This document shows, piece by piece, positions 5,864-62,163 of a DNA stretch of 64,000 bases. Origin of the DNA: Candidatus Poribacteria bacterium. Its GTDB lineage: Bacteria > Poribacteria > WGA-4E > WGA-3G. The stretch is from positions 1 through 64,000 of the forward strand of contig CAXXUA010000004.1 in the NCBI GenBank assembly GCA_963663765.2, given 5' to 3'. The notes under the pieces are model-generated. The model had not been told where the DNA came from. It saw only the letters and a list, made by a program, of their open reading frames with translations, and ran no database searches. The translations under genes and the position numbers were made by a program. The stretch's first letter is position 1. Every line of letters starts with the position of its first letter.

Positions 5864-5985
5864 CAGGACTTACGCAATAACGGTAGTCGTGCTTTGTAAG
5901 CGCGCTGGAAACCTATTAATATGCTGATAATTACATCATTTCCATCATAATTCTTGATTAAATCAAGAAAACTGCGTTAGTCCTG
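5864..5985 (+). mobile_element. MITE family A (TIR CAGGACTTACGCA, 5-bp TSD) carrying one REP
   Basis: Ends CAGGACTTACGCA ... TGCGTTAGTCCTG; flanking direct repeat AGAAG (5859-5863 and 5986-5990); reverse-complement homolog at 55260-55382. Confidence 0.9.
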
Positions 5986-6160
5986 AGAAGGTTTTTAGTT
6001 AGATACTACATGGTCTTATTATATCTCTGTTAGAATTGAATTGTTAATTTTCAACGTCTCCACATATTTATGGAAACCATGTTTTGAATAATTTTATTCT
6101 CACCACTGACATATTTACACATTCATCACACTACATAAAGGGACTATACCAAAGGGGGTA

Positions 6161-6787
6161 ATGTATATGAATGATGATTCAAAAACCTTGTATTTAATTG
6201 GTGGAGCAACTGCTATTCTTAGCGGACTCCTAATAGTCTTTTCATTTTTTTGGTTTAGACTAAGACCTGTGGATAACCATGCTGCTGTTCACGGAATCAG
6301 TGTGGTCATGCTAATTCTCTTAATACCAACGGTCCTTGCAACGACTTTACTACTTATAAAAGAACAGAAAACAGGCGCACTCTTAGGTGTAGGGTTTGCT
6401 ACACTTTGGATCGTTGTAGAACTCATCTCACATATATCACAAACAGCACCACTGAAAACTGTCTTGATGCTTATACAAGATGCTGCAACAAAGGAATTCG
6501 GTGACGGATTCAATCAGGTTTGGAAAGAATGGATTACTGCTTGTAAACTTCTTGGTGCATTCCTATTTTCTATTTCAGCACTATGTTACGGATTAACTTT
6601 ACGAAAATGGGGGAATTCAGCTTCCGCTTATCTTCTGATATTTGCTGGAATTGTTTTTGCGTTAACCTTCATACCATACGTAGATTTCAATTGGCATATT
6701 TTAGTTCGTGGACTTGCGTTCCTATTCTTAGGTGGCGTTCTTTTGAATGCCCCCACTGGGATCGCAGATGAGCAATGGGACGCATAA
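6161..6787 (+). CDS. hypothetical integral membrane protein
   Basis: 208-aa ORF with about six hydrophobic helices and an upstream G-rich RBS. Confidence 0.7.
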   Translation: MYMNDDSKTLYLIGGATAILSGLLIVFSFFWFRLRPVDNHAAVHGISVVMLILLIPTVLATTLLLIKEQKTGALLGVGFATLWIVVELISHISQTAPLKTVLMLIQDAATKEFGDGFNQVWKEWITACKLLGAFLFSISALCYGLTLRKWGNSASAYLLIFAGIVFALTFIPYVDFNWHILVRGLAFLFLGGVLLNAPTGIADEQWDA

Positions 6788-6795
6788 CTTTAAAC

Positions 6796-6828
6796 TGAGT
6801 AGACGCGAATAAAACCAGCGTCTACTCA
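6796..6828. terminator. hairpin between convergent genes, probable bidirectional terminator
   Basis: TGAGTAGACGC-11 nt-GCGTCTACTCA, perfect 11-bp stem. Confidence 0.6.
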
Positions 6829-6867
6829 ATCATCTTAATCTATATGCATTCAATCATAGTACATACG

Positions 6868-7671
6868 CTATTCTCTATTGTTTTCTGGTGTGTCAACCTC
6901 GTTCAATAGACGTTCTAACTCCTCTAAGAGATCAGTGTCCTCTTGTTCATTATCTATCTCGTCTACAGCTTCGCTGTCTTCTGTACCGAGTGCTTGCAAA
7001 TCAGACCGAAACTCAATCAGGTTGCTTAGGTAGCGTTCTCGAGTGATATTTTCTGCTTCACCGTGTTCTTCGCGTAAACATTCACCACAGAATTCTCCGA
7101 TGTGTTGAATGCCTTTGTCAACATGCTGTATAGCCGCATCAGGATCGTCCTCCTGTAGACAAAGTTCGGCTTTTGCAATGCTATTCATCATCAGCATGTA
7201 TCCTTTATATTGATAGCTTCTCCAAGCGATTTCGGACGGTGCGTATTCGCGTGCCATATTGGTAACCGTCAGGTTGATGTCTGTATCACGACGTACGTCT
7301 TCCCATCGCTTAATACCAGCAAATAGGAGGTATCTCGAATACCGATGGAAAGACTCCTCAAACAAGGTGTCCCACTCCTCTTCGGTCAATTCAAAACCAT
7401 CAAGCGTACCGTTGTCTTTTGCATGTTCTTCATACTTACCACGAATATAATCGTAGTAAGAATCCAGACCGTGTGGACGCGCACCATCCGGGCGACCTGT
7501 AGCATAGATGCGGGAGACAGTGAATGCATTCGGTTGAACTACAACAACTTCTCTACCGTCTTCAATCGTCAATATACGCACAGGATGGTCCTCATCAAGG
7601 TTTATGACTTGGAGTATCCTATCAAGGGCTTGAACCCAACGTGTATTTCTTTGTATTGTATCGTTGGACAT
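6868..7671 (-). CDS. conserved hypothetical protein resembling the N-terminal part of planctomycete UvrB/UvrC-motif proteins
   Basis: VRILTIEDGRE, GRPDGARPHG and VRRDT motifs recognised from recall; acidic C-terminus without an obvious UVR motif; directly downstream of carB. Confidence 0.5.
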   Translation of the reverse strand: MSNDTIQRNTRWVQALDRILQVINLDEDHPVRILTIEDGREVVVVQPNAFTVSRIYATGRPDGARPHGLDSYYDYIRGKYEEHAKDNGTLDGFELTEEEWDTLFEESFHRYSRYLLFAGIKRWEDVRRDTDINLTVTNMAREYAPSEIAWRSYQYKGYMLMMNSIAKAELCLQEDDPDAAIQHVDKGIQHIGEFCGECLREEHGEAENITRERYLSNLIEFRSDLQALGTEDSEAVDEIDNEQEDTDLLEELERLLNEVDTPENNRE

Positions 7672-7683
7672 GGTTTTTTACCT

Positions 7684-10917
<3,234 letters not shown>

Positions 10918-10975
10918 TTTATTTTTTCTGTTTTGCGAGTGTTAGAAAAAAGTAATGATTTTTGATTCCTATCAA

Positions 10976-12143: not shown

Positions 12144-12429
12144 TACCATTTCTATAATTTGTTGTTACATTGGTCTGTTATCATGATAGTCGTTCTTTAG
12201 GACACAAACTGAAAGAAGATTAAAAATTGCTTTGGGTAATTCCCCTAATCCAGCCACGGCAGGCGTGCTTTGTAAGCGCGCTGTGTGTGGGGTTGACATA
12301 CCAGCGCGCTTACAAAGCACCAAATCAAGAAATCAACGGTATGAATGCCTTTAGGCATTCCCCTGGTATGAATGCTGTTTAGGCATTCCCCGCCTACCGT
12401 TGGGTGCGTAAGTCCTGTTAGAAATGGTA
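12144..12429. mobile_element. MITE family C (TIR TACC..., TAA TSD), composite, inserted in the pyrC stop codon
   Basis: Perfect 11-bp TIR TACCATTTCTA/TAGAAATGGTA; TAA at 12141-12143 and 12430-12432; contains a REP doublet, a hairpin insert and a family-A end (TGCGTAAGTCCTG). Confidence 0.85.
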
Positions 12430-16750: not shown

Positions 16751-16779
16751 TTAATACTCCAAAGTAACCTGTGTATTCT

Positions 16780-16820
16780 GCGCGCTTACAGAGCGCGCCT
16801 ACCTTTTGTGCATAGTTCCT
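16780..16820 (-). repeat. solo REP (GCGCGCTTAC family) with a decayed family-A MITE end
   Basis: GCGCGCTTACAGAGCGCGCCTAC followed by CTTTTGTGCATAGTTCCT, resembling CGTTGTGTGCGTAAGTCCT. Confidence 0.6.
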
Positions 16821-26016: not shown

Positions 26017-26117
26017 ATATATTTTTCCTAATATTTGAACAGAGTAATTTCGTTTTCGCTATAAAATCGTGACCAGGAGGTCGCTCCTATTAATAGAAGG
26101 ATAAATTACAAATTTAA

Positions 26118-28004: not shown

Positions 28005-28164
28005 TACCATTTTCATGTGATAATGTCTCATTAGCAGCGGAAATCTGGTAGGAGCGACCTCACGGTCGCGACCGTGAGGTCGCTCCTACCGAAGAGAGTA
28101 ACCCCCTGCCAGTAAACATTAGAATTCCTTAATGAGACAAGATTTATTTGAATTTGAATTGGTA
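28005..28164. mobile_element. MITE family C (TACC...GGTA, TTA TSD) containing a perfect REP palindrome
   Basis: TTA at 28002-28004 and 28165-28167; GGTAGGAGCGACCTCACGGTCGCGACCGTGAGGTCGCTCCTACC at 28047-28090; about 90 bp shared in reverse with 48570-48650. Confidence 0.75.
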
Positions 28165-37641: not shown

Positions 37642-37766
37642 AAACTGAAAAACCAATCTAATATGTATGTCTTTTAACGTTCAATTTTGTTCTTATTTTA
37701 GCATAGTTTGGAGATGAATGCAAGTATATAATATGATAAGGGGTGTGTAAATATTTTTAACCCTTT

Positions 37767-37934
37767 TGTCAGAATCACGGATTACGTAGATTAGGTGGAT
37801 TACGGGGATTTCACGGAAAAGACCTCTGCATATAATTGTATTGCTTAGAAAAGACTTATCCGCTGCCATACGTTCTCAGTCCGGTATCTTATCCGCGCAC
37901 TCCGCGCACTCCACGTAATCCGCGATTCCGTACA
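37767..37934. repeat. long imperfect inverted repeat made of ~9-bp GGATTAC sub-repeats
   Basis: Left arm TGTCAGAATCACGGATTACGT..., right arm ...ACGTAATCCGCGATTCCGTACA. Confidence 0.65.
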
Positions 37935-38319
37935 GGGTGTGTAAAGTTTTTGCACAGAGGTACAAACTTTTGTTCTCTTTAGTCCCGTAGGGACGCAATG
38001 TTTATAGATAGGTGTAATCACCCTCTCTTGAGTTCCGTAGGAACGACATAGAAGAATAAACATATCGTCCCTACGGGACTAAAGAACTGGGAAGGGTACT
38101 TGTTTTCTATAAACATATCGTCCCTACGGGACTGAAGAGTATGGTTGATATTAACAATATTTCCTTATATTGACACCTATGGGTCTCTGTGCCCGCAATC
38201 TCTCATTTAATCAGTTGCGGCGGGGTACAGAGACCCGGGGAATGCCTAAATGGCATTCATACCGTTGATTCCGCTCTACAATGGAGAATGTGCAGTTTGT
38301 GCAAAAACTTTACACACCC
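37935..38319. mobile_element. MITE family B (TIR GGGTGTGTAAAGTTTTTGCACA, 9-bp TSD)
   Basis: 22-bp perfect TIR; TSD TTCCGTACA at 37926-37934 and 38320-38328; interior holds REP clusters. Confidence 0.92.
37981..38133. repeat. cluster of four AGTCCCGTAGGGACG-type palindromic repeats (two forward, two reverse)
   Basis: Copies near 37981, 38030, 38066 and 38119. Confidence 0.8.
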
Positions 38320-38377
38320 TTCCGTACACAAAGGAATTATGAAAATCCTATATTGACACTTATAGAGACAAAAACTT

Positions 38378-39604
38378 TTATTCTATCTGTAAGTCAAAAA
38401 TAGTTTTTACGGTTGCAGTTTTTCCGGTGTTAAGGGCGGTTTGTATTGCGATCTTATAGTCGCGTAGGGAAAATGGTTTGCCAACCAATGGCAGCAATTG
38501 CTCGCCATGATCTTGCAACAGACGGAGACCGAGTTGAAAAGTATGTATCTGTTCACCGTTGTATGTTTCAAGTCTGTATGTATATGCCCCTTTCACCTGT
38601 AGTTGTTTATACCAAATAGATGTCCAGTCAATGTTATTCGGAATTCCTGGCATTCCGAGTAAGATGACTTCTCCACCTGCTCGCGTAAAACGTAGTGCAT
38701 CATCTATTGTAACACTGGAACCGACGCAGTCAAAGGTTAAATCCACCCCGCCAAGTAGCACTTGTTGACCGAGTTCCGGTTGGTAAGATTCTGCATTCGT
38801 TAACTCACAGAAAGCATCATAACGATTTATTCGAACAGGAATCACCACATCTGCTCCTAGATCGCGTGCTAACGTCTGTTGGTGGGGATGTTTTGCAAAG
38901 ATAAGGATTCTGTTTTTAAATTCAAGCATTCTTAGAGCTGCTACGGTGAGTAATCCGATGGTACCTCCGCCAATTATACATATATCCGTTTTGTCGTGGA
39001 ATTCAGCTTGCAGAACACCATGAATTGCGCATGCAAACGGTTCAAGCAGCACCGCTAATTCATCTGATAGTTCATCTGGAACGCTATGAAGTTGTGACTG
39101 ATGTGCAAGGACGTATTGACTCCAACCCCCACCTGTATCCCGACAATAACCTGTTTGAATACCTGCAGAAATGCTACCATTTGTGATGTTTTCGCAGTTA
39201 GCAAAACTTAAATTTTGACACTGATGACAAGGTGGATTTATCTCGCGGACTGTACAGGAGAGTGCGGGTTCTATAACTACTCTTTCACCGATAGACCGCC
39301 CCTTAACTGCATTTCCGATCTCTGCAATTTCACCGACAATCTCATGTCCCAGTATAAAAGGTGTTGACGTGAAAGGTGAAAAATAGGGACTGCCCTTTGC
39401 TGTAATCGTTGCTAAATCGGAGCCGCAGATGCCACTGAGATGGGTTTTGATTTTGACCCATTGGGGAGTTGGCAGTTGTGGTTCTGGTATGTTAACGAGT
39501 GAAATGCAAGAGATAGGAGACGTATATAGGCTGCGCCACCTTTTTCCAAGGTAGCGCATTGCGAGATAACGGGGGATGCTTTTTGTGTATTGGATGGCTT
39601 GCAC
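38378..39604 (-). CDS. zinc-dependent alcohol dehydrogenase (MDR family)
   Basis: SGICGSD, LGHEIVG, structural-Zn cysteines, IIGGGTIG; GTG start. Confidence 0.9.
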   Translation of the reverse strand: MQAIQYTKSIPRYLAMRYLGKRWRSLYTSPISCISLVNIPEPQLPTPQWVKIKTHLSGICGSDLATITAKGSPYFSPFTSTPFILGHEIVGEIAEIGNAVKGRSIGERVVIEPALSCTVREINPPCHQCQNLSFANCENITNGSISAGIQTGYCRDTGGGWSQYVLAHQSQLHSVPDELSDELAVLLEPFACAIHGVLQAEFHDKTDICIIGGGTIGLLTVAALRMLEFKNRILIFAKHPHQQTLARDLGADVVIPVRINRYDAFCELTNAESYQPELGQQVLLGGVDLTFDCVGSSVTIDDALRFTRAGGEVILLGMPGIPNNIDWTSIWYKQLQVKGAYTYRLETYNGEQIHTFQLGLRLLQDHGEQLLPLVGKPFSLRDYKIAIQTALNTGKTATVKTIFDLQIE

Positions 39605-43771: not shown

Positions 43772-43987
43772 TTGACTTTTTCCAGCATCCTTAGTTTTTA
43801 ATATTATAACACATTCAGGAAAAATAACAATTCTTTTTATGTGAATAGATTGTGCTGATTGTTTTGAATCTCGGATTGCACCAAATCATAGGTAATAATA
43901 ATGGAGTATGCCACACGTGCATGCTTCTTTAGGAGTTTTGATCCTTTTTTTCATAAGGTGCATCCGTAATGTTGTTAATAATGAAAA

Positions 43988-45346
43988 CTGACATTTATCA
44001 CAAGGTTGTTTATACTGCTAACAATCAATGTATAGAAGGGATAGTGTTATGAAAATGCGATTTGATTTTATAGATTTTTCTTGACTTTTAGCACATGAGA
44101 TATCATCCTAATTTAAAAAACTTATGACATATTCATAAAATAGGAGGCTATCTCATGCAAAATCATATTATCACTTCTGTAAAGTTTTTTCAAACACTTC
44201 TCTACTCTAATTTTCGAAAAATGACATCGGAACTTGAAGAAACCTTGCTTTTACTTTCAACCGGTCATCTATTTGGACTTTACAATTTGAATCAAATAGC
44301 AGACGCATTGTCTGAACCGAAAGTGAAACTCTATCGGTGTCTAAAAAGTTTCAGCCTTTATCAGTGGCGGTGTTTATTAGTGCGTATCGGGTGTTCCATT
44401 GCAATCCAAGAGATACGTGATACCGAATCTAAAAGTGCTTCTACACAATCCCGTCGTCGCATTACAATCAGTGTAGATGATACAAATGAGCAGAGATATG
44501 GCAAACTGTTGTCATACTGCTTCAGTTGGTGGTCAAAAAAAGATAATAGAGCGGTGCGATGCCGAAATATATTAGGGATCACCATCAAGATTGGAGATAT
44601 GATCATACCGCTCAACCTTCGTATTGTCAGCAAACAAGGGCGTGGCAACACAGATAAACCGAGCCTTTTTGTGGCTATGCTCAAAGAAGTTCTAAGTTTC
44701 TTTGATGCTGAAGGTATTGATCTGAGAAAATATCCTATCACTTTTGATTCGTGGTATGGCAGTAAAAAACTTACCGACATTCTGTCTGAAATGGGATTTG
44801 ATAGCATACTCATTCACGGGAAAAACAACTATGTGATGGACATTGATAACAAGTCCAAAAAACTTTCGGAACACAAAAAGGAAGTAGAACTGAACACAGA
44901 AAAATGGGGGTGTGACAAACCTCACTATCGCACCCAAGCGATAAGCCGAACATTCGGTCCTCTTGTGATACTCTTTTTTTCAGATATGGGCAAAATCCGA
45001 ACAATGCTGGTATTCGGTAAATCCTTACGATCTTGTGAGATACTCAGGAATTGGTCACAACACCACGGTATAGAACAATTTTGGCGATGCCTAAAATCAG
45101 ATTTGAAACTTTCAAAAATGAGTTTACGGAAACAGCAAGGAGCGTATGCTACTTTAGGTATAAAAGTGATGAGTTATCTCCTATTACAAGATTTGAGCCG
45201 TTTGCAACACAAAACATTTCATCAAATACAACTTGAACTTACAGGATAAAGAAAGATACTGCTAAAACTAAAAAAGCATTTTCATGAATGAATACCAACT
45301 AAACACTGATAAACATTGAAATCTCAAGAACTTTGAGAAATATCAG
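43988..45346 (+). mobile_element. insertion sequence, DDE type (IS4/IS701-like)
   Basis: Imperfect TIRs CTGACATTTATCA.../...TGAGAAATATCAG; 6-bp TSD TGAAAA (43982-43987 and 45347-45352); single transposase ORF. Confidence 0.88.
44155..45249 (+). CDS. DDE transposase
   Basis: ISVDDT, ITFDSWY, HHGIEQFWRCLK; RBS AGGAGG. Confidence 0.88.
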   Translation: MQNHIITSVKFFQTLLYSNFRKMTSELEETLLLLSTGHLFGLYNLNQIADALSEPKVKLYRCLKSFSLYQWRCLLVRIGCSIAIQEIRDTESKSASTQSRRRITISVDDTNEQRYGKLLSYCFSWWSKKDNRAVRCRNILGITIKIGDMIIPLNLRIVSKQGRGNTDKPSLFVAMLKEVLSFFDAEGIDLRKYPITFDSWYGSKKLTDILSEMGFDSILIHGKNNYVMDIDNKSKKLSEHKKEVELNTEKWGCDKPHYRTQAISRTFGPLVILFFSDMGKIRTMLVFGKSLRSCEILRNWSQHHGIEQFWRCLKSDLKLSKMSLRKQQGAYATLGIKVMSYLLLQDLSRLQHKTFHQIQLELTG

Positions 45347-45376: not shown

Positions 45377-46291
45377 ATGGCAAATACATTGACTTTTAGA
45401 CATTGGCAACCCGGAGATGATGATGCTATTTTAGAACTGTTGGTCCCCGCAGAACAAGTCTACGAAGACTCTTATCAAACGAAGTTTGAGGATTGGCATG
45501 TTGAAATTGAGGCAGAAGCAATTCGTTTAGCACTTGTTAACAAAAGGGTTGTAGGGCACGTTCTCGGTGAACCTATTCTTTTGCACATTGAGGATAAAAT
45601 TCAGAAATTCGGATGGGTATCACATGTCTTTGTTGATCCAGACATGCGTCGGCAAGGTATCGCAACCCGCTTGATGAGTGAATTGCATTCCTACTTTCAG
45701 CGAAATGGATATCGTGGTAGTATTCTTGATACGGATGAAGAAGCAGCCATACGATTGTATCAGAAGATTGGATATAAGATGTTTACAAGAGAATTAGTAA
45801 CACAACTTTCCCCAAACCGAAATTCAACACGGCTCAAATGGACTAAAGTTAATTTAAATGACTTAAGTACCTTACCTCAATTGGATGAAAGATGGGCAAA
45901 ACAGAATTTTCCAGTTGAGTGTGTTCGGCAAGATATTGTCAAAAAACGTAGATTCATAAAAGTGCTTGAGTACAACATGAGCGGTTACCGAATTTTACGT
46001 CATGGTCAAAATATTGTCGGTTATTCGAGATGGGATGAACCCTCAGAACATCACCCACACGGATTAATTCGTGACCCTATCGTGCCGGATGAAGATTCGA
46101 TGGATGTTATTGCATCAGTCCAGGCAAGGATACTGGCACCTCGCGCTTGGCAAACAGCAGAGGGTGGAAAGTATGAAGAAACTCTTGTTTCATGCGGTTG
46201 TGTATTTAAACCCACAACATGGATTATAATGCATTTATCCTTTGGCGAAGAATTTGATTTGACAGGATACTACAAGACAGCTTGGTTGTAA
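45377..46291 (+). CDS. GNAT acetyltransferase (Eis-like N-terminus), paralog 1
   Basis: VFVDPDMRRQGIATRLM, AIRLYQKIGY. Confidence 0.85.
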   Translation: MANTLTFRHWQPGDDDAILELLVPAEQVYEDSYQTKFEDWHVEIEAEAIRLALVNKRVVGHVLGEPILLHIEDKIQKFGWVSHVFVDPDMRRQGIATRLMSELHSYFQRNGYRGSILDTDEEAAIRLYQKIGYKMFTRELVTQLSPNRNSTRLKWTKVNLNDLSTLPQLDERWAKQNFPVECVRQDIVKKRRFIKVLEYNMSGYRILRHGQNIVGYSRWDEPSEHHPHGLIRDPIVPDEDSMDVIASVQARILAPRAWQTAEGGKYEETLVSCGCVFKPTTWIIMHLSFGEEFDLTGYYKTAWL

Positions 46292-46414
46292 ATTGCTATT
46301 TGCCTATGGATATAAAGCGTTATGTATTATTCATAGAAATTTGATTCCTTTTTTCATAAGGTGCATCCGTAATGGTGTTAATAGTGAAAATGCTTTGCAG
46401 ATAAAAGGAGATAC

Positions 46415-47299
46415 ATGGCAAACACATTGACTTTCAGACATTGGCAGCCTGGTGATGACGACGCAATTCTGAAATTGTTAGTTCCTGCTGAACAATGCAA
46501 TGAGTACCACTATAGAAGAAAGTTTAACAGGCCCAACCTTGAACCTGAAGATATTCGTATAGCATTAGACGGTGAGAGAGTTGTGGGACATGTTTTTGGT
46601 ACTCAAGCAACCTTATTCATTGAAGGTAAGGTACAAGATTTTGGTATTGTGTCGCTTGTATATGTTGCTACAGATATGCGGCGTCAAGGAATTGCAACCA
46701 GATTAATGGAAGACTTAAATGCTCACTTTCTTAGGAAAGGGTATAGAGGCAGTATTCTTTATGTAGAGACAACAGAAGCATTTCAACTATATCGTAAAGT
46801 AGGATATCAAGAACTCACCAAGGAATTAAGAACTATACTAAAACCGTGTACAATTACATCACCACTCAAATGGTCTGATGTAAAACCTGATGATTATGAT
46901 GACTTGAAACAGGTTAAGGAAAGATGGACAAAGATGAATTTCCCAGTTTTTTGGAGTCCGAATACATTGGAGATTCATCAACGTAATATGAATCAGTATC
47001 GCGCATTACGTCGGGGGACAAATATCATCGGTTATGCGAAATGGGATGAGCCTTCAGAACACCGACCAAATGGTTTAATATGTGACCCAGTAGTCCCAGA
47101 TGAAGACCCAATTGAAATAATTACATCAGTACAGTCTGTGGTTCCAACACAGCGCGAATGGAAAACTGTTGAAGTGAGTCTATACGAAGATACACTCATT
47201 TCCATAGGCTGCAAATTGCAGAAGGAAAAGAATATTGATATGTTGTTATCTTATGGTCAGGAAATAGATTTGACAGGTATTCATCGAACTTGGTGGTGA
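46415..47299 (+). CDS. GNAT acetyltransferase, paralog 2
   Basis: VYVATDMRRQGIATRLM, LYRKVGY; first 19 residues MANTLTFRHWQPGDDDAIL identical to paralog 1. Confidence 0.85.
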   Translation: MANTLTFRHWQPGDDDAILKLLVPAEQCNEYHYRRKFNRPNLEPEDIRIALDGERVVGHVFGTQATLFIEGKVQDFGIVSLVYVATDMRRQGIATRLMEDLNAHFLRKGYRGSILYVETTEAFQLYRKVGYQELTKELRTILKPCTITSPLKWSDVKPDDYDDLKQVKERWTKMNFPVFWSPNTLEIHQRNMNQYRALRRGTNIIGYAKWDEPSEHRPNGLICDPVVPDEDPIEIITSVQSVVPTQREWKTVEVSLYEDTLISIGCKLQKEKNIDMLLSYGQEIDLTGIHRTWW

Positions 47300-48532: not shown

Positions 48533-48638
48533 CAGTTCTATCTTCTGAATTTGCTTGATTCCCTTATAATTCCAATTTAAATAAATCTTGTCTCATTAAG
48601 GAATTCTACTGTTTACTGGCAGGGGTTTACTCTCTTCG

Positions 48639-48774
48639 GTAGGAGCGACCTCCTGGTCGCGACAGTTTTGATACATGGTCTCTATACGGTCGCGACCAGG
48701 AGGTCGCTCCTACCAACGCATAGAGAGGTCGCTCCTACCAACGCATAGAGAGGTCGCTCCTACCAACGCATAGA
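48639..48774. repeat. REP doublet followed by a 3 x 25-bp tandem amplification of the REP 3' half
   Basis: GTAGGAGCGACCTCCTGGTCGCGAC...GTCGCGACCAGGAGGTCGCTCCTAC; unit GAGGTCGCTCCTACCAACGCATAGA at 48700, 48725 and 48750. Confidence 0.88.
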
Positions 48775-48831
48775 GGTGTCACTCCAAACAGTCCAAGTGT
48801 GTAATTAATTCCATAGTTTACCATAGTATAA

Positions 48832-48919
48832 TACCAAATTAACGTAATTTATCTTTTTTCAACGGTAGGTGCGGTTTCCTAACCGCACACTTAGCAAGAC
48901 GACTCACGTTAATTGGGTA
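48832..48919. mobile_element. MITE family C (TACC...GGTA, TAA TSD) carrying one REP
   Basis: TACCAAATTAACGT/ACGTTAATTGGGTA; TAA at 48829-48831 and 48920-48922; REP GTAGGTGCGGTTTCCTAACCGCAC at 48865. Confidence 0.8.
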
Positions 48920-50453: not shown

Positions 50454-50981
50454 TTGAAAAAAACTTTTTTGATGCTGCTATTGATAGGATGTGCAGTAAT
50501 CCATTTTACAAGTTGTGAGAAGTCAGTGAGAGATTCTATGAATGATATTGTTGATTCATCAGAAACACCGACAAAGGACGACCCTGAAGCGTATACTGTA
50601 GCACTTGTGCAGTCTGCGATTGATCTTTTCAAAACGGAAGGTCGCGAAGTCGTTATAGCTTACCACAATGATCCAACCAATATTGATGGACAATGGTATG
50701 TGTTTATTACTGATGAAAACGATATTTTTCTTGCACATGCGCAGAATCTACAATTAGTCGGTACGGATCTTAAGGATGTCATTGGACTTGATGGATCCGC
50801 CCTTGGCGTAGAAATTGCGATGGCAACTGATGAAGGAAAGTGGATTGAGTATTTGTGGCCTAACCCAGAGAGCGGAAATGATGAAATGAAACGGACCTGG
50901 GCAATTAGGTATGATGGTTATTTATTCGGTTCGGGATATTACTCTCCAGTAAGTGATGATTCCGAATCTAAAGATAATTAG
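50454..50981 (+). CDS. stand-alone Cache-domain lipoprotein
   Basis: Lipobox FTSC; WYVFITD...LAH...LVG, GKWIEYLWPNP, YLFGSGYY. Confidence 0.75.
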   Translation: MKKTFLMLLLIGCAVIHFTSCEKSVRDSMNDIVDSSETPTKDDPEAYTVALVQSAIDLFKTEGREVVIAYHNDPTNIDGQWYVFITDENDIFLAHAQNLQLVGTDLKDVIGLDGSALGVEIAMATDEGKWIEYLWPNPESGNDEMKRTWAIRYDGYLFGSGYYSPVSDDSESKDN

Positions 50982-51003: not shown

Positions 51004-51049
51004 GATAGGAACAATAGCAAGGTACAAGTACCTTGCTATTGTTCCTATC
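51004..51049. terminator. perfect long palindrome between convergent genes
   Basis: GATAGGAACAATAGCAAGGTAC-AA-GTACCTTGCTATTGTTCCTATC (22-bp arms). Confidence 0.65.
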
Positions 51050-51080: not shown

Positions 51081-52193
51081 TTATTTACTAAGTTTTTCAA
51101 TTAGAGCATCAATTTTCTTCTCTAATTTTTCAACTTTTTTCGTCAGTTTATCAATTGCATCAGAGGCATTAGACTTATTTGAAGACACGATCGAACCTCT
51201 TTTCAAGACCTTTATGTCTGCTTTATCCCCTAAATCTATAATAGGAATCAACGCAGAAGGATTTTCCTTGACAATTTCTTTTATCTTCTCAGCCAATTGA
51301 TCTACGTCGAGGTCTTCATCCTTGGCAAGTTCTGCAATATCCTTCGCGAATTCTGTAAGTCCTTTGGTTTTCTTGACATCACTTGCGACAATCACTGTAA
51401 CATTGTCGTCGTCAGAAACGATGACGTTTTCTAATTTACTATCTTTCAACAACTTCTTCAATTTCTCAGTTAACTGATCTTCAACAAGGTTTTCCTCCTT
51501 AGTGAGTTCAGTAATTTTCTTCATTAACCCCGTTAGATCTTTCTCATTTTTGATGACTTTGGTGACAACGATTGGTTCAGATGTAATGACTTTTACATTA
51601 TCATTGTCAATATCAAAGATTGAATGTAAATCAAGATTCTTCACCAATTCCTTTATCTTTTTTTCCAAAGATGCATCATCAAGACTTTCATCCTTGATGA
51701 GATCCTTGATTTTTTCCACGAATTCCTGCAATTTCTCTGGATTTGTAAGAACTTTAGATACATCAGTTGAAGTTTTTACTTCAACTTTTACATCTTCAAT
51801 GTTCTCTAAGTTCTTTAACATCTTAGAAAGTTTTTCTTTAAGCTTTTTTTCGTCAAGTAACTCATCTTCTGAAAGCTCTTTAAGTCCTTCCATAGACTCT
51901 GTTAACTTGTCCAAGACTTTTTGAACATTTTTATCAACCTCTTTCTTTTCTTCATCAGTAAGGTCTTCATAGGATTTAGTTTCTTTCTTTTCTGGAGTGG
52001 TTTTAGTATCAGCATTTGCTTCAGTGTCAGCATTTGCTTCAGTGTCAGCATTTGCTTCAGTGTCAGCATTTGCTTCAGTGTCAGCATTTGCTTCAGTGTC
52101 AGCATTTGCTTCAGTGTCAGCATTTACTACTAACAAAGCCATTCCAAACGATAAGAAAAATGTGAGAATAAAAACTAAGCATTTAACATTCAT
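51081..52193 (-). CDS. secreted Lys/Glu/Asp-rich repeat protein
   Basis: Signal peptide, ADTEAN repeats, about four helical repeats of the L.KDE.L....L.EKIK type, C-terminal coiled coil; RBS AGGAG. Confidence 0.7.
   Translation of the reverse strand: MNVKCLVFILTFFLSFGMALLVVNADTEANADTEANADTEANADTEANADTEANADTEANADTKTTPEKKETKSYEDLTDEEKKEVDKNVQKVLDKLTESMEGLKELSEDELLDEKKLKEKLSKMLKNLENIEDVKVEVKTSTDVSKVLTNPEKLQEFVEKIKDLIKDESLDDASLEKKIKELVKNLDLHSIFDIDNDNVKVITSEPIVVTKVIKNEKDLTGLMKKITELTKEENLVEDQLTEKLKKLLKDSKLENVIVSDDDNVTVIVASDVKKTKGLTEFAKDIAELAKDEDLDVDQLAEKIKEIVKENPSALIPIIDLGDKADIKVLKRGSIVSSNKSNASDAIDKLTKKVEKLEKKIDALIEKLSK
52009..52125. repeat. in-frame 18-bp VNTR (6.5 copies, ADTEAN)
   Basis: TCAGCATTTGCTTCAGTG x6 plus a half copy, all identical. 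Confidence 0.97.
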
Positions 52194-53565: not shown

Positions 53566-54635
53566 GAAAGCGAGGGTTCTTAGGTTGATTGCAGCATTTA
53601 TGTCTCTATCTATTTGATAGTCGCATTGACTGCAATGATACGTTCTCTCTGATAGCGTCAAATCATCTTTCTTGTGTCTACAACGACTACAAGTTTTACT
53701 TGAAGCATAGAATTGCGGTGCTTGTAATACAGGTATTCCGAAAGCATCTGCTTTCGTTTTTAGCTTATTGAGAAACCCACCTAACGCTGAATCCGATAAT
53801 GCCTTCGCGAGTTTTCTATTCTTTAGCATGTTCGTTATTTTTAGTGTCTCAATGCTGATAGTAGATGCAAGGTTGACGATCTCTGTAGTTGCTTTGTGGT
53901 GTGCATCATTTCGGATACAAGCGATACGATAGTGGATACGTTCTAACTTGTGTTTCTGCTTGAACCAGTTTTTTGACTTGAAAACACGCCGACTCAACTT
54001 GCGTTGTTCCCTCTTTAGTTTTCTCTCATAGCGTTTCAGAGGTCTTGGATTCTCATATTTCGTGCCATTACTCAAGGTGGCAAGTGTGTTGATGCCTAGA
54101 TCTATACCGATAACAGGGTGCGTTGAATTGTCAACGACTTCGGTGTCCTCTGTTTCTACAGTGATAGATATAAACCAACGATGTGCTGTCCTTGAAATCG
54201 TCACGCTGGTAATCTTCCCTACAAAACGCAATGCTTGACGCATTTTGACCCAACCAACCTTAGGCAACCGGACCTTCTTGCCTTCAACTTTCACAGATTG
54301 TACGTCTGTTGTCCATGTGTCCCGAATCCCACGCTTTTTGAATCGAGGAAACCTCGCACGTTTGCTAACCCAATTCGTAATCGCTTGACCCAAATTCTTG
54401 ATCGCATACAACGCAGCTCTTTGGTCTTGTGAACGTGTCCACTCATAACGCTTTTTCGCTTTGTTGAAGTTGTTATTAAGGGTGCGCCACGACTGGAAGT
54501 TATCATTATCTAATCCTACATTAAATCTGACAACGGTTGATTATACGCAAAACGAGCATAACCACATTGTTGGGAAAACCATGTGCGTTGTTTGTTGTTC
54601 GGATTCAATGTAATCTTGTGTGTTTTGTAGGGCAT
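53560..54635 (-). pseudogene. tnpB: RNA-guided endonuclease TnpB with one frameshift near 54523
   Basis: MPYKTHKITLNPNNKQ...ARFAYN; one base missing in GAT-TT-AAT; then RuvC GIDLG, SIETL and DRDINAAINL plus zinc finger CSRC/CSQC. Confidence 0.9.
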
Positions 54636-54716
54636 ACCTGACTCCTGATAAGATGCTGACCCCCTCGTCAAAGGTGTGGCAGGTGTTGACGCACCTACCA
54701 CAGAGTCAGTCTTATT

Positions 54717-54746: not shown

Positions 54747-54795
54747 GCGTTTTTTGACCCGAGGGTGGGTAAAGTTTTTGTAGAAACCCTATTAT

Positions 54796-55001
54796 TATAG
54801 TGGATTTTAGAATTATTTTTTGCACTATCAGGTGTAGGAGGGAACTCCGATTCCCGACTATCAAGGCGTTCAGTCGCGATTCGGAGATCGAAATCAAGTA
54901 ATCAACGGTATGAATACCTTATGGTATTCCCCGGGTATGAATGCCTATTGGCATTCCCCGCCTACAGAAAAAGTGTAAACTTAATTGTATATTTCACTAT
55001 A
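54796..55001. mobile_element. MITE family D (TATAGTG... ends, TA-flanked), nested in the family-B copy
   Basis: TATAGTGGATTTTAGAATTA ... TAATTGTATATTTCACTATA; contains a REP doublet at 54834-54965. Confidence 0.65.
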
Positions 55002-55059
55002 AAAGAAGTATCTAAAGTTTCTATCAAAGTTTGCTTCACGTAAGGGAACTGTGGACATC

Positions 55060-55122
55060 GTAGGGGCGAGGTTTCCTCGCCTGCGTAATACCTTTGCTCG
55101 GGCAGGGAGTCCCCGCCCCTAC
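55060..55122. repeat. REP doublet (GTAGGGGCG family)
   Basis: GTAGGGGCGAGGTTTCCTCGCC ... GGGCAGGGAGTCCCCGCCCCTAC. Confidence 0.75.
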
Positions 55123-55259
55123 ACACAGTAACCAAAACTTTACACACCCTTGACCCGAAGCTAAAGGCTTGGGATTGTCATTTAATTCCCTTCATCTGTT
55201 TTTTCGGACTAATATGGATATTGATTACTACATATCTTGAATTGAGGGTTGCAAATTAT

Positions 55260-55382
55260 CAGGACTTACGCAGTTTTCTTGATTTAATCATAAATTATGA
55301 CGAAAATGATGCCGTTATCAGCGTTTTTATGGGTTTCCGGCGCGCTTACAAAGCACGCCTACCGTTGTGTGCGTAAGTCCTG
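55260..55382 (-). mobile_element. MITE family A, second copy
   Basis: Perfect 13-bp TIR CAGGACTTACGCA; TSD ATTAT at 55255-55259 and 55383-55387. Confidence 0.93.
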
Positions 55383-56126
55383 ATTATATTCGATCAGTTC
55401 TGTAATACCTTCATCATCTTCTATTCTTACAATGCCAATATTTGGAACAAACCAAATCAACTTAGTATCAATAACTGTTTCCTCATTTGATAAAACTAAA
55501 TGAGTTATATCTGTTTCATATTGTATCTGAAATGCATTCTCAAATGTTCCTGCAGATGTATGAATAACATTTTGATCAAGCACTTTACAATGAACGTTAA
55601 TATGGACATCAAACGCAAACTGAAGAAGAACAAGGTCCTGCAAAATGAGGTTACCGGTGATATTAGTATTTAATGCATCCCATTGAGAATTCAGTGTTAA
55701 AGGAGTATGCAAAAAAAGGAGTTCAGGGTACAACTCTGTATCAGAATTCACACTTATTTCTAATCCTGTGAATTCATCCTCAACAACTTTTGGCAGTCCA
55801 TTTTGAAGATAATTATTAATTCTTTCATCTACTCTGAAAAAAACCTGATTCTGAGTAACACGAAAAGAGGAAGGGATAAGAATATCCAATTCGTTACCAG
55901 TCATTTCTGGTATAAAATCAATTTTCTGAAATAAGATGTTGTTTGTAGTTATATCATCTGCGACTGACCACGTCCATAGCAACTCATCAGGAGTTTGATA
56001 GACCCATCTCGTTCCAACTGCATCGGGGAAGTAGTTTGGTTTAAATTCAGTAGGTTCAGGATCCTTATCAGAACTGCATGCAACAAACATTGTAATGCAG
56101 TATATCGTTAAAAGAAAAAACCTCAT
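55359..56126 (-). CDS. hypothetical lipoprotein
   Basis: Lipobox FVAC; YFP..VGTRWVY and T.AGTF...WFVPNIGIV motifs; last 7 aa come from the MITE. Confidence 0.75.
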   Translation of the reverse strand: MRFFLLTIYCITMFVACSSDKDPEPTEFKPNYFPDAVGTRWVYQTPDELLWTWSVADDITTNNILFQKIDFIPEMTGNELDILIPSSFRVTQNQVFFRVDERINNYLQNGLPKVVEDEFTGLEISVNSDTELYPELLFLHTPLTLNSQWDALNTNITGNLILQDLVLLQFAFDVHINVHCKVLDQNVIHTSAGTFENAFQIQYETDITHLVLSNEETVIDTKLIWFVPNIGIVRIEDDEGITELIEYNQDLRTQR

Positions 56127-56213: not shown

Positions 56214-56223
56214 TGGCAATATA

Positions 56224-57549: not shown

Positions 57550-57660
57550 TTTTATCTCCTTGTTGAGTTAATTGAATATTTTATTGTTAACGTTAGTTTT
57601 TTATAGTCAAATTTATATAATTATGTTCGGTGATGAAAACGCACCTACCAGAGTTTTTGG

Positions 57661-59004
57661 TTATAGTAATAGTTCACGAACATAAACTGCGATAAAGAAT
57701 ACTGCGAAATAGTGGACGAGAGGATTCACCTCTTTCCTACGTCCAGTGACAAGCTTTAAAAATGACATAGAAATAAAACCGAATGCGATTCCTTCTGTAA
57801 TACTGAAAGCAAGAGGCATCATTAATACAGTCAAAGCAGCGGGTATTGCTTCAGTGAAATCTTCCCAATTTATGTTGATAAGGTCTTTAAGCATCAACCC
57901 ACCCACAACAACTAATGCGGGACCAATTATAGGATAAAGTGGAATTGGACTTCCTTGTTGTATAAATCCACCCCCAACAATTTTTGCTAAAGGTGTAAAA
58001 AACATTGCACACAACATGAGCAGACCTGTAACAATTGCAGTCAATCCTGTTCGTCCCCCCTCAGCAATGCCAGAAGCACTTTCAATATAACACGTAACTG
58101 TTGAGGTGCCAAGACATGCCCCACCTACGGAACCAACTGCATCTGACAAAAGTGCTTGTCTGCCTTTTGATAATTTTCCATCCTCCATCAAGTCTGCCTC
58201 ATAACCAGTAGCAGTTAGTGTGCCGATGCTATCAAACATATCCACTGCAAAGAAGAAAAATATATAAGGTATAAGTTCCATCAACTTTGAAGGACTTGGG
58301 AACCGTAATTTTAGAAAAGTAGGTTCGATTGAGGAAGGCATAGAAACAATACCCTCAAATTTTGCAATTCCAAAAATAAGTGCGACAATTCCAGTTGCAA
58401 GTATCCCCATCAACATAGCACCCTTCACCCGGTGTGCCATCAATGTAATTATTACTAACAATCCGAAAATTGAGACCAAGACAGGTTTAGATTGGATATT
58501 TCCAAGTTTTACAAATGTATCCGGATCTGCAGTGATAATCCCACACATCCGTAAACCGATAAACGCGATAAAAACGCCAATTCCTACAGCAATAGCGTTT
58601 TGGAGTGAAGATGGCAGTGCATTCATAACTGCAGCACGTAAACCGACGAAGGAAAGAATGACAAACAGCATTCCCGATATGAAAACAATACCTAAAGCGA
58701 ATTGCCAGTCAAGACCAAGTCCACGTTCTTTTGATACAATCTCATAAACAAAATATGTATTTATTCCCATACCCGGTGCAAGTGCAACCGGATAGTTCGC
58801 AAGAAATGCCATCAAAAAAGTTGCAAAAGCACTTGAGACACATGTTGCAACCAATACAGCATCTGGATCCATACCTGCTTGACCCAGAAAATAAGGTTGT
58901 ACAAAGATAATATATGAAAGTGTCATAAAGGTTGTACAACCTGCGACAATCTCTCTTCGTATACTTGTCCCGTGTTCTTTTAAACGAAATAATTTTTCTA
59001 ACAC
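57661..59004 (-). CDS. NCS2/AzgA-family purine permease
   Basis: EIVAGCTTFMTLSYI, ALAPGMG, DMFDSIGT, YIESASGIAEGGRTGLTA. Confidence 0.93.
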   Translation of the reverse strand: MLEKLFRLKEHGTSIRREIVAGCTTFMTLSYIIFVQPYFLGQAGMDPDAVLVATCVSSAFATFLMAFLANYPVALAPGMGINTYFVYEIVSKERGLGLDWQFALGIVFISGMLFVILSFVGLRAAVMNALPSSLQNAIAVGIGVFIAFIGLRMCGIITADPDTFVKLGNIQSKPVLVSIFGLLVIITLMAHRVKGAMLMGILATGIVALIFGIAKFEGIVSMPSSIEPTFLKLRFPSPSKLMELIPYIFFFFAVDMFDSIGTLTATGYEADLMEDGKLSKGRQALLSDAVGSVGGACLGTSTVTCYIESASGIAEGGRTGLTAIVTGLLMLCAMFFTPLAKIVGGGFIQQGSPIPLYPIIGPALVVVGGLMLKDLININWEDFTEAIPAALTVLMMPLAFSITEGIAFGFISMSFLKLVTGRRKEVNPLVHYFAVFFIAVYVRELLL

Positions 59005-59166
59005 AATTCCCCCTAAAATATGAATCGCTAATTACAATTAACAATCAATCATGTCTTGAAAATACACATATTATCCAAATACTCTATCAAGTAACTAGGA
59101 ATTTAAAACCTACATTAGTATATTTCTATTCATAGATATAACCCAGATTAGCATGCTTGTCAAGTA

Positions 59167-60795
59167 CTACTTGTCTAAAACAATATGTACTTCCGCATTC
59201 GCACCCTCTTCACCAACAAATAGATTTGCGGTTATCGGTCCAAGTGACTCCAATGGAAATAGATTATCTTGGATTTGCTGCATTAATTGAGCATCCAGTT
59301 TTATACCAGAAAATGATGCAAGAATCGTAACTAATGGGATGAACCTTTTTATTTCAGGTACTAACAGTTGCGGTTGAACATAAGTCTGAATACCATTAGA
59401 CGCAAATGTTATGTCTTCTAAATTAGGAGAGTCTCCAGAATTCGTATCAAGTACAGTTTTTAACCCATCCAATGTCGTACTTAAAAATAGATCGTTATTC
59501 ACAATTGCATAAGCACCAGTATACGACATTAGGATATTTAAACGCATTCGAAGAGGATGTAAAGAAATTCCTTTATAGTTTTGCACTTCAAGGAACTCAA
59601 TAGGCCTTCCCGCAACAGAAAATTTTGTGTTATTAAGTTTTTTTATGTTTTCATCAAGAGATTTTATGTTTTGAATTGGGGTATGTATCACTAACGAAGG
59701 TAATTTTGACATTTCACCTTCATTACGAGAAACTATAGCAGCAGTCATTTCGGGTTTAAAAATGTCATAAAAACTTACATCATCTGATTCAATTTCAATT
59801 GTTAATAGAGAAGTTAATACTTGCCAAAACTGAGTCCAATTATGCTGTGGATAGAATGCAACTAAAGCGGTATGTTTAGGAATAAATGTTGGTGTGGTTC
59901 GCGGTTTTGAATGTGGGTTTTTTGGTGATTCGTGATTTCCAAACTGATATTTTGAAACTACCGCACCTTCTTCATACCGATTCTCAAATGTCCAAAACTT
60001 TCCTTCGTTAATCATAGAAGATAAATGACCAGAAATATTATCATTTTCATCTGCTAGATGTTTTAACAACACAGAAAAGCGTGGAAGGTCCACATATCCA
60101 GTGTTTGTATTGTCATTATAACTTTTCTGTATATGTTTTTTAATGGAATGTTTAGTAAGAAAACCTTCATTTTTATCATTATATATGTCTATTACTTCTG
60201 CTAAAAGCAAGGGATTAAGGGTTAACACTCCTATTTTTCCGATAAAGGTATAACTAAAATCAAGTGGATATCCAATTATGGTATTGATAGTTAGACCGTT
60301 GTGTTCTGTCTTAATTCGTTTATAGTTAGGGTTTATTAGATCTGTCGCTGTGATTGCTTCAATGGCAAGCTTTTCTGGTCCACCTACTTCTGTAATAAGT
60401 AGAAATGAGAACTCATTTTCACGTTGATAGAGTGCAAGAATTACTTCCTTACCAAAATGACCTTTAACTGCTCGCATATCAAATCTTCCACCCATTTCGT
60501 ATTCCCAGAGCATTTTCTGATATACAATCTGACGCCACCAAAGTTTAGATCCTATTTGCTTGAATATAGGCATCTGTTTGACCTGCTTACCAAATTCACT
60601 CTCATTAAATGCCTTAACAAGTCCATCCAAATCCTTCAATGTCAAATAACATATTGGAGATTCTGGGAGTAATGTGATAAGACTATGTTCAGGTTTCCAA
60701 AGTGAAGTTTGATGATAAACAACAGTTAACAATAGAATGATACCAACCAATACAATTAGTAGGGTGAAGATGAATCTTTTCTTTGACTTTTGCAT
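59167..60795 (-). CDS. membrane-anchored hypothetical protein (DUF3352-like)
   Basis: N-terminal TM followed by LLPE; beta-rich repeats; family call tentative. Confidence 0.5.
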   Translation of the reverse strand: MQKSKKRFIFTLLIVLVGIILLLTVVYHQTSLWKPEHSLITLLPESPICYLTLKDLDGLVKAFNESEFGKQVKQMPIFKQIGSKLWWRQIVYQKMLWEYEMGGRFDMRAVKGHFGKEVILALYQRENEFSFLLITEVGGPEKLAIEAITATDLINPNYKRIKTEHNGLTINTIIGYPLDFSYTFIGKIGVLTLNPLLLAEVIDIYNDKNEGFLTKHSIKKHIQKSYNDNTNTGYVDLPRFSVLLKHLADENDNISGHLSSMINEGKFWTFENRYEEGAVVSKYQFGNHESPKNPHSKPRTTPTFIPKHTALVAFYPQHNWTQFWQVLTSLLTIEIESDDVSFYDIFKPEMTAAIVSRNEGEMSKLPSLVIHTPIQNIKSLDENIKKLNNTKFSVAGRPIEFLEVQNYKGISLHPLRMRLNILMSYTGAYAIVNNDLFLSTTLDGLKTVLDTNSGDSPNLEDITFASNGIQTYVQPQLLVPEIKRFIPLVTILASFSGIKLDAQLMQQIQDNLFPLESLGPITANLFVGEEGANAEVHIVLDK

Positions 60796-61020
60796 AATGG
60801 TAGAAAACAGCTTTTGTGCGTCAATTTGCTATCATCGTTTAGTATAACATTATTATGGATATAATACAATAGGACTTATTTTAAGGCCAGGGTTATTTAG
60901 ATTTCAATTTATTGATATTATTTTGCTGTTTCGTTAATTTTATGGGATACCATCTTGTCTAGTTCTTTAGTCCCGTATGAAGATTAATTTATGAATAGGG
61001 TAATAAATATTTTTCAGATG

Positions 61021-62163
61021 GTAGGTGTGCTTTGTAAGCGCGCTCTTGGGATTTGATGTGCCAGCGCGCTTACAATGCACGCCTGCGGTTGGGGGTCAGG
61101 TGGGTGGCGCGCCTACAAAGCACGGCTGCAGTTGGGTGGCAGTTGGGGGGCGCGCGGACAAAGCACGCCTGCAGTTGGGGGTAGTTGGCAGGCTCGCTTA
61201 CAAAGCACGCCTGCAGTTAGGGGCAGTTGGGGGGCGCGCTTACAAAGCACGCCTGCAGTTAGGGGGCAGTTGGGGGGCGCGCTTACAAAGCACGGCTGCG
61301 GTTGGGGGGCAGATGGGAGGCGCCGCTTACAAAGCACGCCTGCGGTTGGGGGGCAGTTGGCAGGCGCGCTTACAAAGCACGCCTGCGGTTGGGGGGCAGG
61401 TGGGTGGCGCGCCTACAAAGCACGCCTGCAGTTGGGGGGCGCGCGGACAAAGCACGCCTGCAGTTGGGGGGAGTTGGCAGGCGCGCTTACAAAGCACGCC
61501 TGCAGTTAGGGGGCAGTTGGGGGGCGCGCTTACAAAGCACGCCTGCGGTTGGGGGGCAGATGTGAGGCGCGCTTACAAAGCACGCCTGCGGTTGGGGGGC
61601 AGTTGGCAGGCGCACTTACAAAGCACGCCTGCAGTTGGGGGTAGTTGGCAGGCTCGCTTACAAAGCACGCCTGCAGTTAGGGGCAGTTGGGGGGCGCGCT
61701 TACAAAGCACGCCTGCAGTTAGGGGGCAGTTGGGGGGCGCGCTTACAAAGCACGGCTGCGGTTGGGGGGCAGATGGGAGGCGCCGCTTACAAAGCACGCC
61801 TGCGGTTGGGGGGCAGTTGGCAGGCGCGCTTACAAAGCACGCCTGCAGTTGGGGGCAGTTGGCAGGCGCGCTTACAAAGCACGCCTGCAGTTAGGGGGCA
61901 GTTGGGGGGCGCGCTTACAAAGCACGCCTGCAGTTGGGGGGAGTTGGGGGGCGCGCGGACAAAGCACGCCTGCAGTTGGGGGGAGTTGGGGGGCGCGCGG
62001 ACAAAGCACGCCTGCAGTTGGGGGGCAGATGGGAGGCGCGCTTACAAAGCACGCCTGCAGTTGGGGGAGTTGGGGGGCGCGCTTACAAAGCGGTAAATCA
62101 AGAAATCAACGGTATGAATGCCATTTAGGCATTCCCCGCCTACCGTTGGGTGCGCAAGTCCTG
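61021..62163 (+). repeat. REP-derived G-rich tandem array (24 full units plus 1 partial, mostly 42-44 bp) inside a REP/MITE composite
   Basis: Unit GCGCGCTTACAAAGCACGCCTGC(A/G)GTT plus G-rich linker from 61064 to 62091; inverted REP at 61021; hairpin insert at 62095-62137; family-A end at 62151-62163. Confidence 0.95.

Follow-up and report, generated by a model that had tools for sequence, protein, structure and literature searches.

Small transposon remnants as carriers and repeated targets of hairpin repeats in the intergenic DNA of a Candidatus Poribacteria genome

Short hairpins of the repetitive extragenic palindromic (REP) type lie inside MITEs (inverted-repeat transposable elements of miniature size) on contig CAXXUA010000004.1 of Candidatus Poribacteria (assembly GCA_963663765.2), and the locus raises the question of whether the hairpins spread by riding the transposon ends or whether the MITEs form around the hairpins. 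The window analysed here is the whole stretch from position 1 to 64,000 of the contig. An initial annotation had described at least four MITE end families with interchangeable REP cargo and had proposed a special coupling between the two. The intergenic DNA is crowded with small transposon remnants that carry smaller hairpin repeats and have been entered by them time and again; the pile-up is better read as known kinds of mobile DNA than as the product of a new coupling mechanism. The best explanation, which we consider probable, is that the window is chromosomal DNA and that, in its non-coding part, three layers of non-autonomous elements pile into each other.

The MITE end families are designated A to D, and the hairpins R1 to R7 and B-alpha. 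Families R1, R3, R4, R5 and R7 are tagged with GTAG, a further set is tagged with AATCAACG, and in R6-type units the flanks are conserved whereas the stems vary. Genomes scanned for the B end gave at least 98 matching stretches; among the matches listed, 67 were titled Poribacteria. The related records were metagenome-assembled genomes (MAGs) and also complete chromosomes, and their matches to window DNA were repeat-sized only. Loci of ~4 kb around B ends (L002-L091), all from species other than that of the window, formed the comparison set (316 kb, or 380 kb together with the 64-kb window). Pairs of B ends were called in window and loci with at most three mismatches in the end, and inverted GTAG...CTAC pairs were detected by edit distance, with indels tolerated. 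The window gave no match to Rfam at gathering thresholds and no tRNA or tmRNA, and blastn with A and with B found no match in a plasmid collection.

Three copies of family B were identified in the window:
37741 to ~38386, plus strand: B0, an outer B MITE belonging to the CGCGGAT-type sub-family; its right end is degenerate, and it has no GTAG hairpin of its own
37935-38319, plus strand: B1, a B MITE nested in B0, with 23-nt perfect inverted ends and the 9-bp duplication TTCCGTACA; inside are R6-type hairpins, the B-alpha core (38181-38236) and, as an insertion, a single R2 unit (38236-38270)
54763-55149, plus strand: B2, a B MITE with the 9-bp duplication TTGACCCGA and an R4 inverted doublet (55059-55124)

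B1 and B2 had been placed exactly, with 9-bp duplications, by the initial annotation, which had missed B0. In window and loci together, 37 pairs of B ends were found, 35 of them spanning 131-854 bp and two spanning 1453 and 1457 bp. The 35 MITE-size copies, distributed over the window and 32 loci (33 of the copies in related genomes), are small, non-coding and multi-copy. The two longer ones, in L002 and L074, are full-length elements with perfect 9-bp duplications, identical 25-nt ends and a 439-aa open reading frame (ORF). These ORFs score 239.1 and 242.6 bits on the NCBIfam ISKra4 model NF033572 (cut-off 205) and have no match in Pfam. Their 25-nt ends match the MITE ends over ~18-24 nt, which supplies, for B, an autonomous insertion sequence (IS) with the same ends of the kind envisaged by the initial annotation. 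Target duplications are identical at 9 of 9 positions in 12 of the 37 pairs and at 8 or more in 17, compared with 1.5% of shuffled flank pairs. No more than 5% of the interior of a B MITE is shared with that of the IS, and the ends alone are common; B MITEs are 'ends-only' derivatives and not simple internal deletions. On these sequence features, B is a true DDE MITE family with an ISKra4-family (Mutator-like) transposase as its partner. The view that MITEs with terminal inverted repeats and target duplications carry GTAG-type hairpins is upheld, and for B the part played by a DDE enzyme is supported by the same-ended full-length copies.

The ISKra4 family is characterised in ISfinder by a 9-bp repeat and GGG tips. 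ISKra4 is a prokaryotic Mutator-like transposase, and in the available part of the source the group (ISKra4/p-MULT 4) resembles the B elements in its inverted ends and in that some members insert upstream of sigmaA promoters, with a spacing that is short and fixed (PMC3942029); the B transposase scores over the family cut-off. Around the B elements, an outward sigma70-like site was present within 70 nt in 27 of 74 flanks (24 of 37 elements) versus 0 of 69 control flanks taken 300-370 nt away, and in 20 flanks the -35 box started 14-17 nt from the B junction. B elements, IS and MITEs alike, thus show the promoter targeting of the ISKra4 group, which is extended here to MITEs. Unlike the elements of that paper, those found here are mostly non-coding ends-only derivatives of 131-854 bp, and the word MITE is absent from the paper's main text (PMC3942029).

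The left flank of B2 carries a promoter (TTGATA-18-TATAAT) whose -35 box lies 16 nt from the junction and which reads into a frameshifted gene:
53560 to ~54640, minus strand: TnpB gene of the IS200/IS605 family, frameshifted near 54530, with the N-terminal helix-turn-helix in another frame

B2 had been read as an insertion into IS605. Its position 16 nt upstream of the TnpB promoter is explained by promoter targeting, and the junction does not demonstrate an insertion inside the IS. A TnpB gene in L039 (604-1719, minus strand), in DNA unrelated to the window, likewise has a B MITE just upstream of its promoter, and neither TnpB gene has a TnpA gene alongside. Also upstream of the window TnpB, a hairpin at 54674-54699 has a GGTAGG motif that resembles the R7 head by eye and is given as a lead only.

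Filled and empty copies bear on the order in which the elements arrived, and involve families D and A in addition to B:
54796-55001, plus strand: D, a MITE nested in B2, with TA on each side and an R5 inverted doublet as core; two R2 units (54891-54960) are inserted in the right arm of the doublet
5864-5985, plus strand: A1, a MITE with 13-bp inverted ends, the duplication AGAAG and an R3 hairpin at 5880-5907 (DNA fold z -4.7)
55260-55382, minus strand: A2, a MITE with the 5-bp duplication ATTAT; it supplies the last codons and the stop of ORF 55359-56126

Both A copies, with their 5-bp duplications, agree with the initial annotation, as does the start of D at 54796 with its TA; the end of D lies at 55001 and not at ~54993. 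The window segments 37742-37809 and 38320-38378, on either side of B1, align to one B MITE in L032 (77% and 93% identity), which is uninterrupted and represents the empty site for B1. For D in B2, a nesting already proposed, the homologous B copy in L022 reads ATTAT-TA-AAGA, an empty TA site. The smaller hairpins follow the same pattern. The window D has two R2 units in one core arm and the L061 D is without them; the A copy in L022 has a tagged hairpin and that in L075 is without it. The R3 hairpin beside the A end is unbroken at 55340-55382; at 12302-12417 and 62075-62163 a single R2 unit or a pair of them splits it at one and the same position, and this junction also occurs in L009 and L037. 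No duplication is visible at the small-hairpin insertion junctions. Nesting is confirmed and runs deeper than first described: B1 sits in another B element, D likewise sits in B, and E, a palindromic element of 60 nt, occupies hairpin loops; five levels (B > R2 > E > R3 > R2) were counted in L009. Related genomes (L032, L022, L061 and L075) thus provide the filled and empty sites, and these copies indicate that small hairpins enter MITEs after the fact. A gene pair encoding GNAT proteins (45377-46291 and 46415-47299) is syntenic with L061 (67-68% amino-acid identity), and its spacer measures 123 bp in the window versus 402 bp, with D, in L061; this is a comparison of length and gene order, the empty site being not alignable at the nucleotide level.

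Hairpins were also found on their own, in the following positions:
5741-5765, plus strand: solo R1, a GTAG-tagged hairpin in plain intergenic DNA
16777-16803, minus strand: solo R3 hairpin between two genes
26063-26090, minus strand: solo R1 hairpin between two genes

Most of the 32 window spacers of at least 40 bp are repeat-free. Inverted doublets of the REPIN kind occur at 28047-28090, 48638-48714, 12256-12320 and 55059-55124. The hairpins fall into two classes. In the first, the core is confined to one MITE sub-family and spreads by riding it. B-alpha, the long GTAG...CTAC hairpin of the main B sub-family, has 13 of its 15 arms inside paired B ends and the other two beside lone B ends at locus edges, and because of this confinement it is taken to spread with B. 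The second class comprises promiscuous head-tagged hairpins (GTAG and AATCAACG), which are also found singly in gene spacers and which enter MITEs as well as one another. In the AATCAACG-tagged set, 18 of 33 sites are followed by a hairpin versus 3 of 62 for six control words, with seven different compensated stems. Matches outside B make up 21 of 24 for R1, 12 of 15 for R7, 14 of 22 for R2 and 19 of 31 for the R6 flank motif; for R4, four of five lie inside B. The proposal that REPs ride DDE-type ends therefore holds for the B-alpha core and is not supported for the commonest families, which are mostly outside B; hairpins also occur solo in short gene spacers.

Pure hitch-hiking, in which hairpins were never self-mobile and were built-in MITE cores, solo copies being eroded MITEs that have lost their ends, would account for the confinement of B-alpha and, largely, of R4 to B, as well as for the same R3 hairpin in A1 and A2; the R2-in-R3 junction recurring in two genomes could be inheritance. 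As a general account it is improbable. Copies that are otherwise collinear are set apart by nothing but a hairpin block of 40-70 nt (D of the window versus L061, A of L022 versus L075), the solo R1 and R3 hairpins sit in gene spacers of 101-103 bp that bear no trace of inverted ends, and R1 is found overwhelmingly outside B.

Two further observations concern individual hairpin families. L017 contains two runs of at least four tandem R2 units (2164-2580) behind a single AATCAACG head, so the R2 unit is able to amplify in tandem without a head. A partial R7-like head (GGTAGGTGCG, reverse strand) at 57630-57655 has no matching stem and is probably a decayed hairpin.

The stronger reading of the initial annotation, which had found GTAG REPs in every copy, is a dedicated coupling: REPs would seed new MITEs, with doublets gaining transposon ends time and again, and would need DDE ends in order to spread. 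It draws on the many different GTAG...CTAC cores, with arms of only 20-40 nt, between the same B ends, and on the distribution of the 54 core matches in the window, 22 of which fall in 1.97 kb of MITE DNA outside a 43-bp tandem array (described below), 23 in that array, 8 in 5.86 kb of other spacers and 1 in 55.1 kb of genes; this contrast between MITEs and spacers is partly circular, as repeats helped to define the MITE borders. The copies listed at the time do contain GTAG REPs, whereas B0 has none in its own sequence, and across the family a GTAG hairpin or inverted pair was found automatically in 15 of 35 B copies (~18 by eye), the remaining 20 of 35 being without. Whole B sub-families (the CGCGGAT type and an AT-rich type) are devoid of GTAG hairpins throughout, as is one 112-bp relative of the C1 element described below. 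Densities per kb of inverted pairs and of single hairpins were 0.75 and 1.77 in B copies, 0.35 and 1.09 in other non-ORF DNA of the same loci (20.2 kb, a background that is biased because the loci were picked by B ends), 0.02 and 0.18 in ORFs, and 0.004 and 0.19 in shuffled B copies. REP carriage in B is thus common, not universal, and about twice the non-coding background. Since, in addition, hairpins insert secondarily, the special coupling is not borne out, and we regard it as unlikely.

That the whole picture reflects chance resemblance, or an artefact of assembling a metagenome bin rich in repeats, is extremely improbable: the related records are MAGs and the 43-bp array could be mis-assembled, but many independent assemblies, complete chromosomes among them, contain the same families between other flanks and with exact duplications, and inverted GTAG pairs are almost absent from shuffled B copies.

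A and D are multi-copy families across species. A1 and A2 share 87% identity over 123 nt in opposite orientation, and two lone A right ends lie in the window (12405-12417 and 62151-62163). Elsewhere, L046 and L075 have full copies, whereas L017, L022, L047/L048 and L084 have lone ends; the interiors are unlike those of the window. D has a second copy in L061, with TA on both sides, and a rearranged copy in L022; its inverted ends are short (~7-13 nt), and the TA duplication suggests an IS630/Tc1-like element.

The elements originally grouped as family C, with the segment that repeats part of one of them, are the following:
12144-12429, plus strand: C1, a MITE with a TAA duplication and, from ~12213 to 12417 in its hairpin loop, a chimera composed of an E-type left end, an R3 inverted doublet (12256-12320), two R2 units (12321-12391) and an A right end (12405-12417)
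28005-28164, plus strand: C2, a candidate MITE with TTA on both sides, imperfect ends and a perfect 44-nt R1 palindrome at 28047-28090 (fold z -9.8)
48832-48919, plus strand: C3, a MITE with 14-nt ends (13 of 14 matching), a TAA duplication and one R7 hairpin (48863-48888)
48568-48775, no strand assigned: an inverted second copy of the right half of C2 (48568-48666), followed by an inverted pair of R1 and by three R1 units of 25 nt in tandem

The ~90-bp interior said to be shared between two of these places is real: 28062-28160 matches 48666-48568 over 93% of 99 nt, in inverted orientation. Because the shared 99-nt stretch ends before the proposed GGTA tip, the borders of C2 are uncertain. The unity of C did not survive comparison. 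C1, C2 and C3 have different inverted ends and hold in common only the first 4-6 nt, the TACC...GGTA tips and TAA/TTA, and C1 and C3 have relatives of their own, so that on end sequence 'C' comprises at least three separate families. The relatives of C1 are two 112-bp copies in L027 (261-372 and 2233-2344), one of which has TAA on both sides and no G+C-rich GTAG-tagged hairpin, the other being without matching flanks; that of C3 is a 311-bp element in L002 (1217-1527) with TTA. The TAA/TTA duplication is present in five of six C copies (C1 to C3 in the window, L027 2233-2344 and L002 1217-1527) and absent at L027 261-372. Such 3-bp TAA/TTA duplications are a link to IS5/Harbinger-like elements, which suggests that the C families are of this kind.

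Element E, ~60 nt long and palindromic, sits in hairpin loops: R7-like in L002, R2 in L009, R6 both in L037 and at window position 60977, and that of C1 at 12213. The window site at 60977 belongs to the following stretch:
60961-62163, plus strand: an R6 half hairpin cut at the loop (60961-60977), followed by an E-left/A-right chimera (60979-62163) with an R3 doublet (61018-61084), a 43-bp array (61064-62091), an R2 unit (62095-62138) and an A right end (62151-62163)

The array has 24.3 copies with 88% matches, its unit being an R3 hairpin plus a G-rich spacer, and it yields spurious ORFs of up to 289 aa (61025-61894). The stretches 12213-12417 and 60979-62163 are the same E-left/A-right chimera, with adjacent host sequence lost at each, and may have arisen by recombination between R3 copies. 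The A end previously noted inside C is accordingly present in C1, as part of a chimera that recurs and not as an A element inserted there.

The three-layer explanation, to which we now return, would work as follows. The first layer would consist of DDE MITEs, families A to D, with D putatively IS630/Tc1-like, C putatively IS5/Harbinger-like, and B mobilised in trans by an ISKra4-family transposase whose sole requirement is the ends (~20-25 bp), which duplicates 9 bp of target and which inserts at 14-17 bp upstream of -35 boxes. The second would be formed by head-tagged hairpins of the REP/REPIN type, as solo copies, inverted doublets and tandem arrays, which enter other hairpins and MITE interiors with no visible duplication and would be moved by a single-strand HUH enzyme (RAYT or IS200-like). 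The third would be the 60-nt palindromic E in hairpin loops. MITE interiors would collect hairpin insertions because they are neutral and hairpin-rich, and a MITE sub-family that amplifies later would take its hairpin core along. Unrelated interiors between the same ends would be expected because the transposase selects on the ends only, with nested insertion, adjacent deletion and recombination between repeated hairpins as putative sources of interior turnover. The partner of B, its duplications, the nesting, the promoter targeting and the filled and empty copies of small hairpins are the observed parts of this scheme.

Several results weigh against it. None of the 77 window ORFs of at least 90 aa matches Pfam Y1_Tnp, in agreement with the earlier statement that the window has no RAYT gene; no Y1 or RAYT match to Pfam was obtained for 46 HUH-motif ORFs picked from 579 in the loci (the other 533 were not scanned), and E. 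coli RayT gave a best phmmer E-value of 0.48 over 2805 reading frames. The duplications of A are inconsistent (5, 5 and 7 bp, ambiguous in L046), and no partner of A, sought as a 0.6-3-kb pair with A tips, was found in window and loci. Pairs of C tips spaced 0.6-3 kb (in L016, and in the window across genes) do not share the MITE ends and give no C partner, and a TAGT pair with D tips in L051, of the same size range, has ends that differ from D and gives no D partner. The R2-in-R3 composite of the window, L009 and L037 may be one old inherited event and not recurrent insertion, the E-left/A-right chimeras have no clean boundaries, and the bias in the background densities given above belongs here as well.

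Small dispersed repeats (SDR) of Nostoc punctiforme, reportedly described by Elhai et al. in 2008, are said to be very small hairpin repeats inside other repeats, including MITEs, with no obvious duplication; those described here are from another phylum, have other sequences and are units of 25-45 nt with a conserved head. Insertion sequences targeting REPs were reportedly described by Tobes and Pareja in 2006. In REP-targeting IS of the ISPpu9 type, palindromic repeats likewise serve as landing sites; in the available parts of these sources a full IS enters the REP, whereas here non-coding units of 40-60 nt enter hairpin heads or loops (PMC8450116, PMC12288879). The REP/REPIN-RAYT system, as far as covered by the text available, shares the GTAG tag with a G+C-rich hairpin, the inverted doublets, the tandem arrangement and the extragenic location (PMC3116915, PMC3337134, PMC2817692). 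It differs in that no RAYT was found in the 380 kb, many doublets here lie within DDE-type ends, and there are several unrelated hairpin families that insert into other hairpins. GTAG repeats are reported in Cyanobacteria and the Planctomycetes-Verrucomicrobia-Chlamydiae (PVC) group, and GTAG- and CGTC-tagged palindromic repeats have a similar short conserved unpaired tag and variable compensated stem; in the available part of that source the AATCAACG tag is not among the named tags and Poribacteria are not mentioned (PMC3733652). A tandem array grown inside a miniature element also resembles the minisatellite in a Porphyromonas gingivalis MITE, in the text available, with the difference that the repeated unit here is a REP-like hairpin (PMC4596501). 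A large MITE census makes no mention of Poribacteria, ISKra4 or 'nested' (PMC11602168). Literature searches for Poribacteria with MITE returned papers unrelated by title, and those for ISKra4 with MITE returned, by title, resistance genomics or IS surveys. The earlier remark that REPs within such MITEs had not been described is fair for Poribacteria within the literature searched, the SDR reported from Nostoc being the nearest precedent.

The window itself has a G+C content of ~40% and is densely coding, with carA/carB, a dihydroorotase-like gene, ATP sulfurylase, transporters and a sigma-54 activator. A DDE_Tnp_1 gene (44155-45249, plus strand) was considered as partner of A or B and rejected, having no matching ends and weak IS701/IS4 scores far under the cut-offs; an ORF in L025 is 67% identical to it, so that it looks like a conserved gene and perhaps a domesticated transposase. 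A motif of ~50 nt, 92% identical between 43937-43987 and 46340-46390, lies upstream of this gene and of a GNAT gene, and again upstream of the GNAT gene in L061 (~2185-2235); it may be a shared regulatory site or leader. ORF 51081-52193, which has no family match, contains an 18-bp in-frame tandem repeat in ~7-9 copies (51962-52141). Just downstream of ORF 50454-50981, two perfectly inverted 22-nt arms separated by 2 nt (51004-51049) resemble a terminator and stand outside all repeat families described here.

Within the searchable literature, this is the first worked-out mobile-repeat inventory for an uncultivated phylum of sponge symbionts, and it ties a large population of MITEs to a transposase family that is Mutator-like and targets promoters. 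In these MAGs, nests of this kind will interrupt assemblies and lead gene callers astray, as the 289-aa ORF through the 43-bp array illustrates. The natural filled and empty pairs allow it to be asked how hairpins of 25-60 nt move and why other hairpins are chosen. We tentatively raise the possibility that Poribacteria harbour structure-targeting mini-elements (the AATCAACG set and E) that choose hairpin heads or loops and are moved by a single-strand enzyme, and that ISKra4-type MITEs deliver stacks of them 15 bp upstream of promoters, where the cargo could act on transcription. If cargo 15 bp upstream of the -35 box does affect transcription, these elements would be a genome-wide source of regulatory variation.

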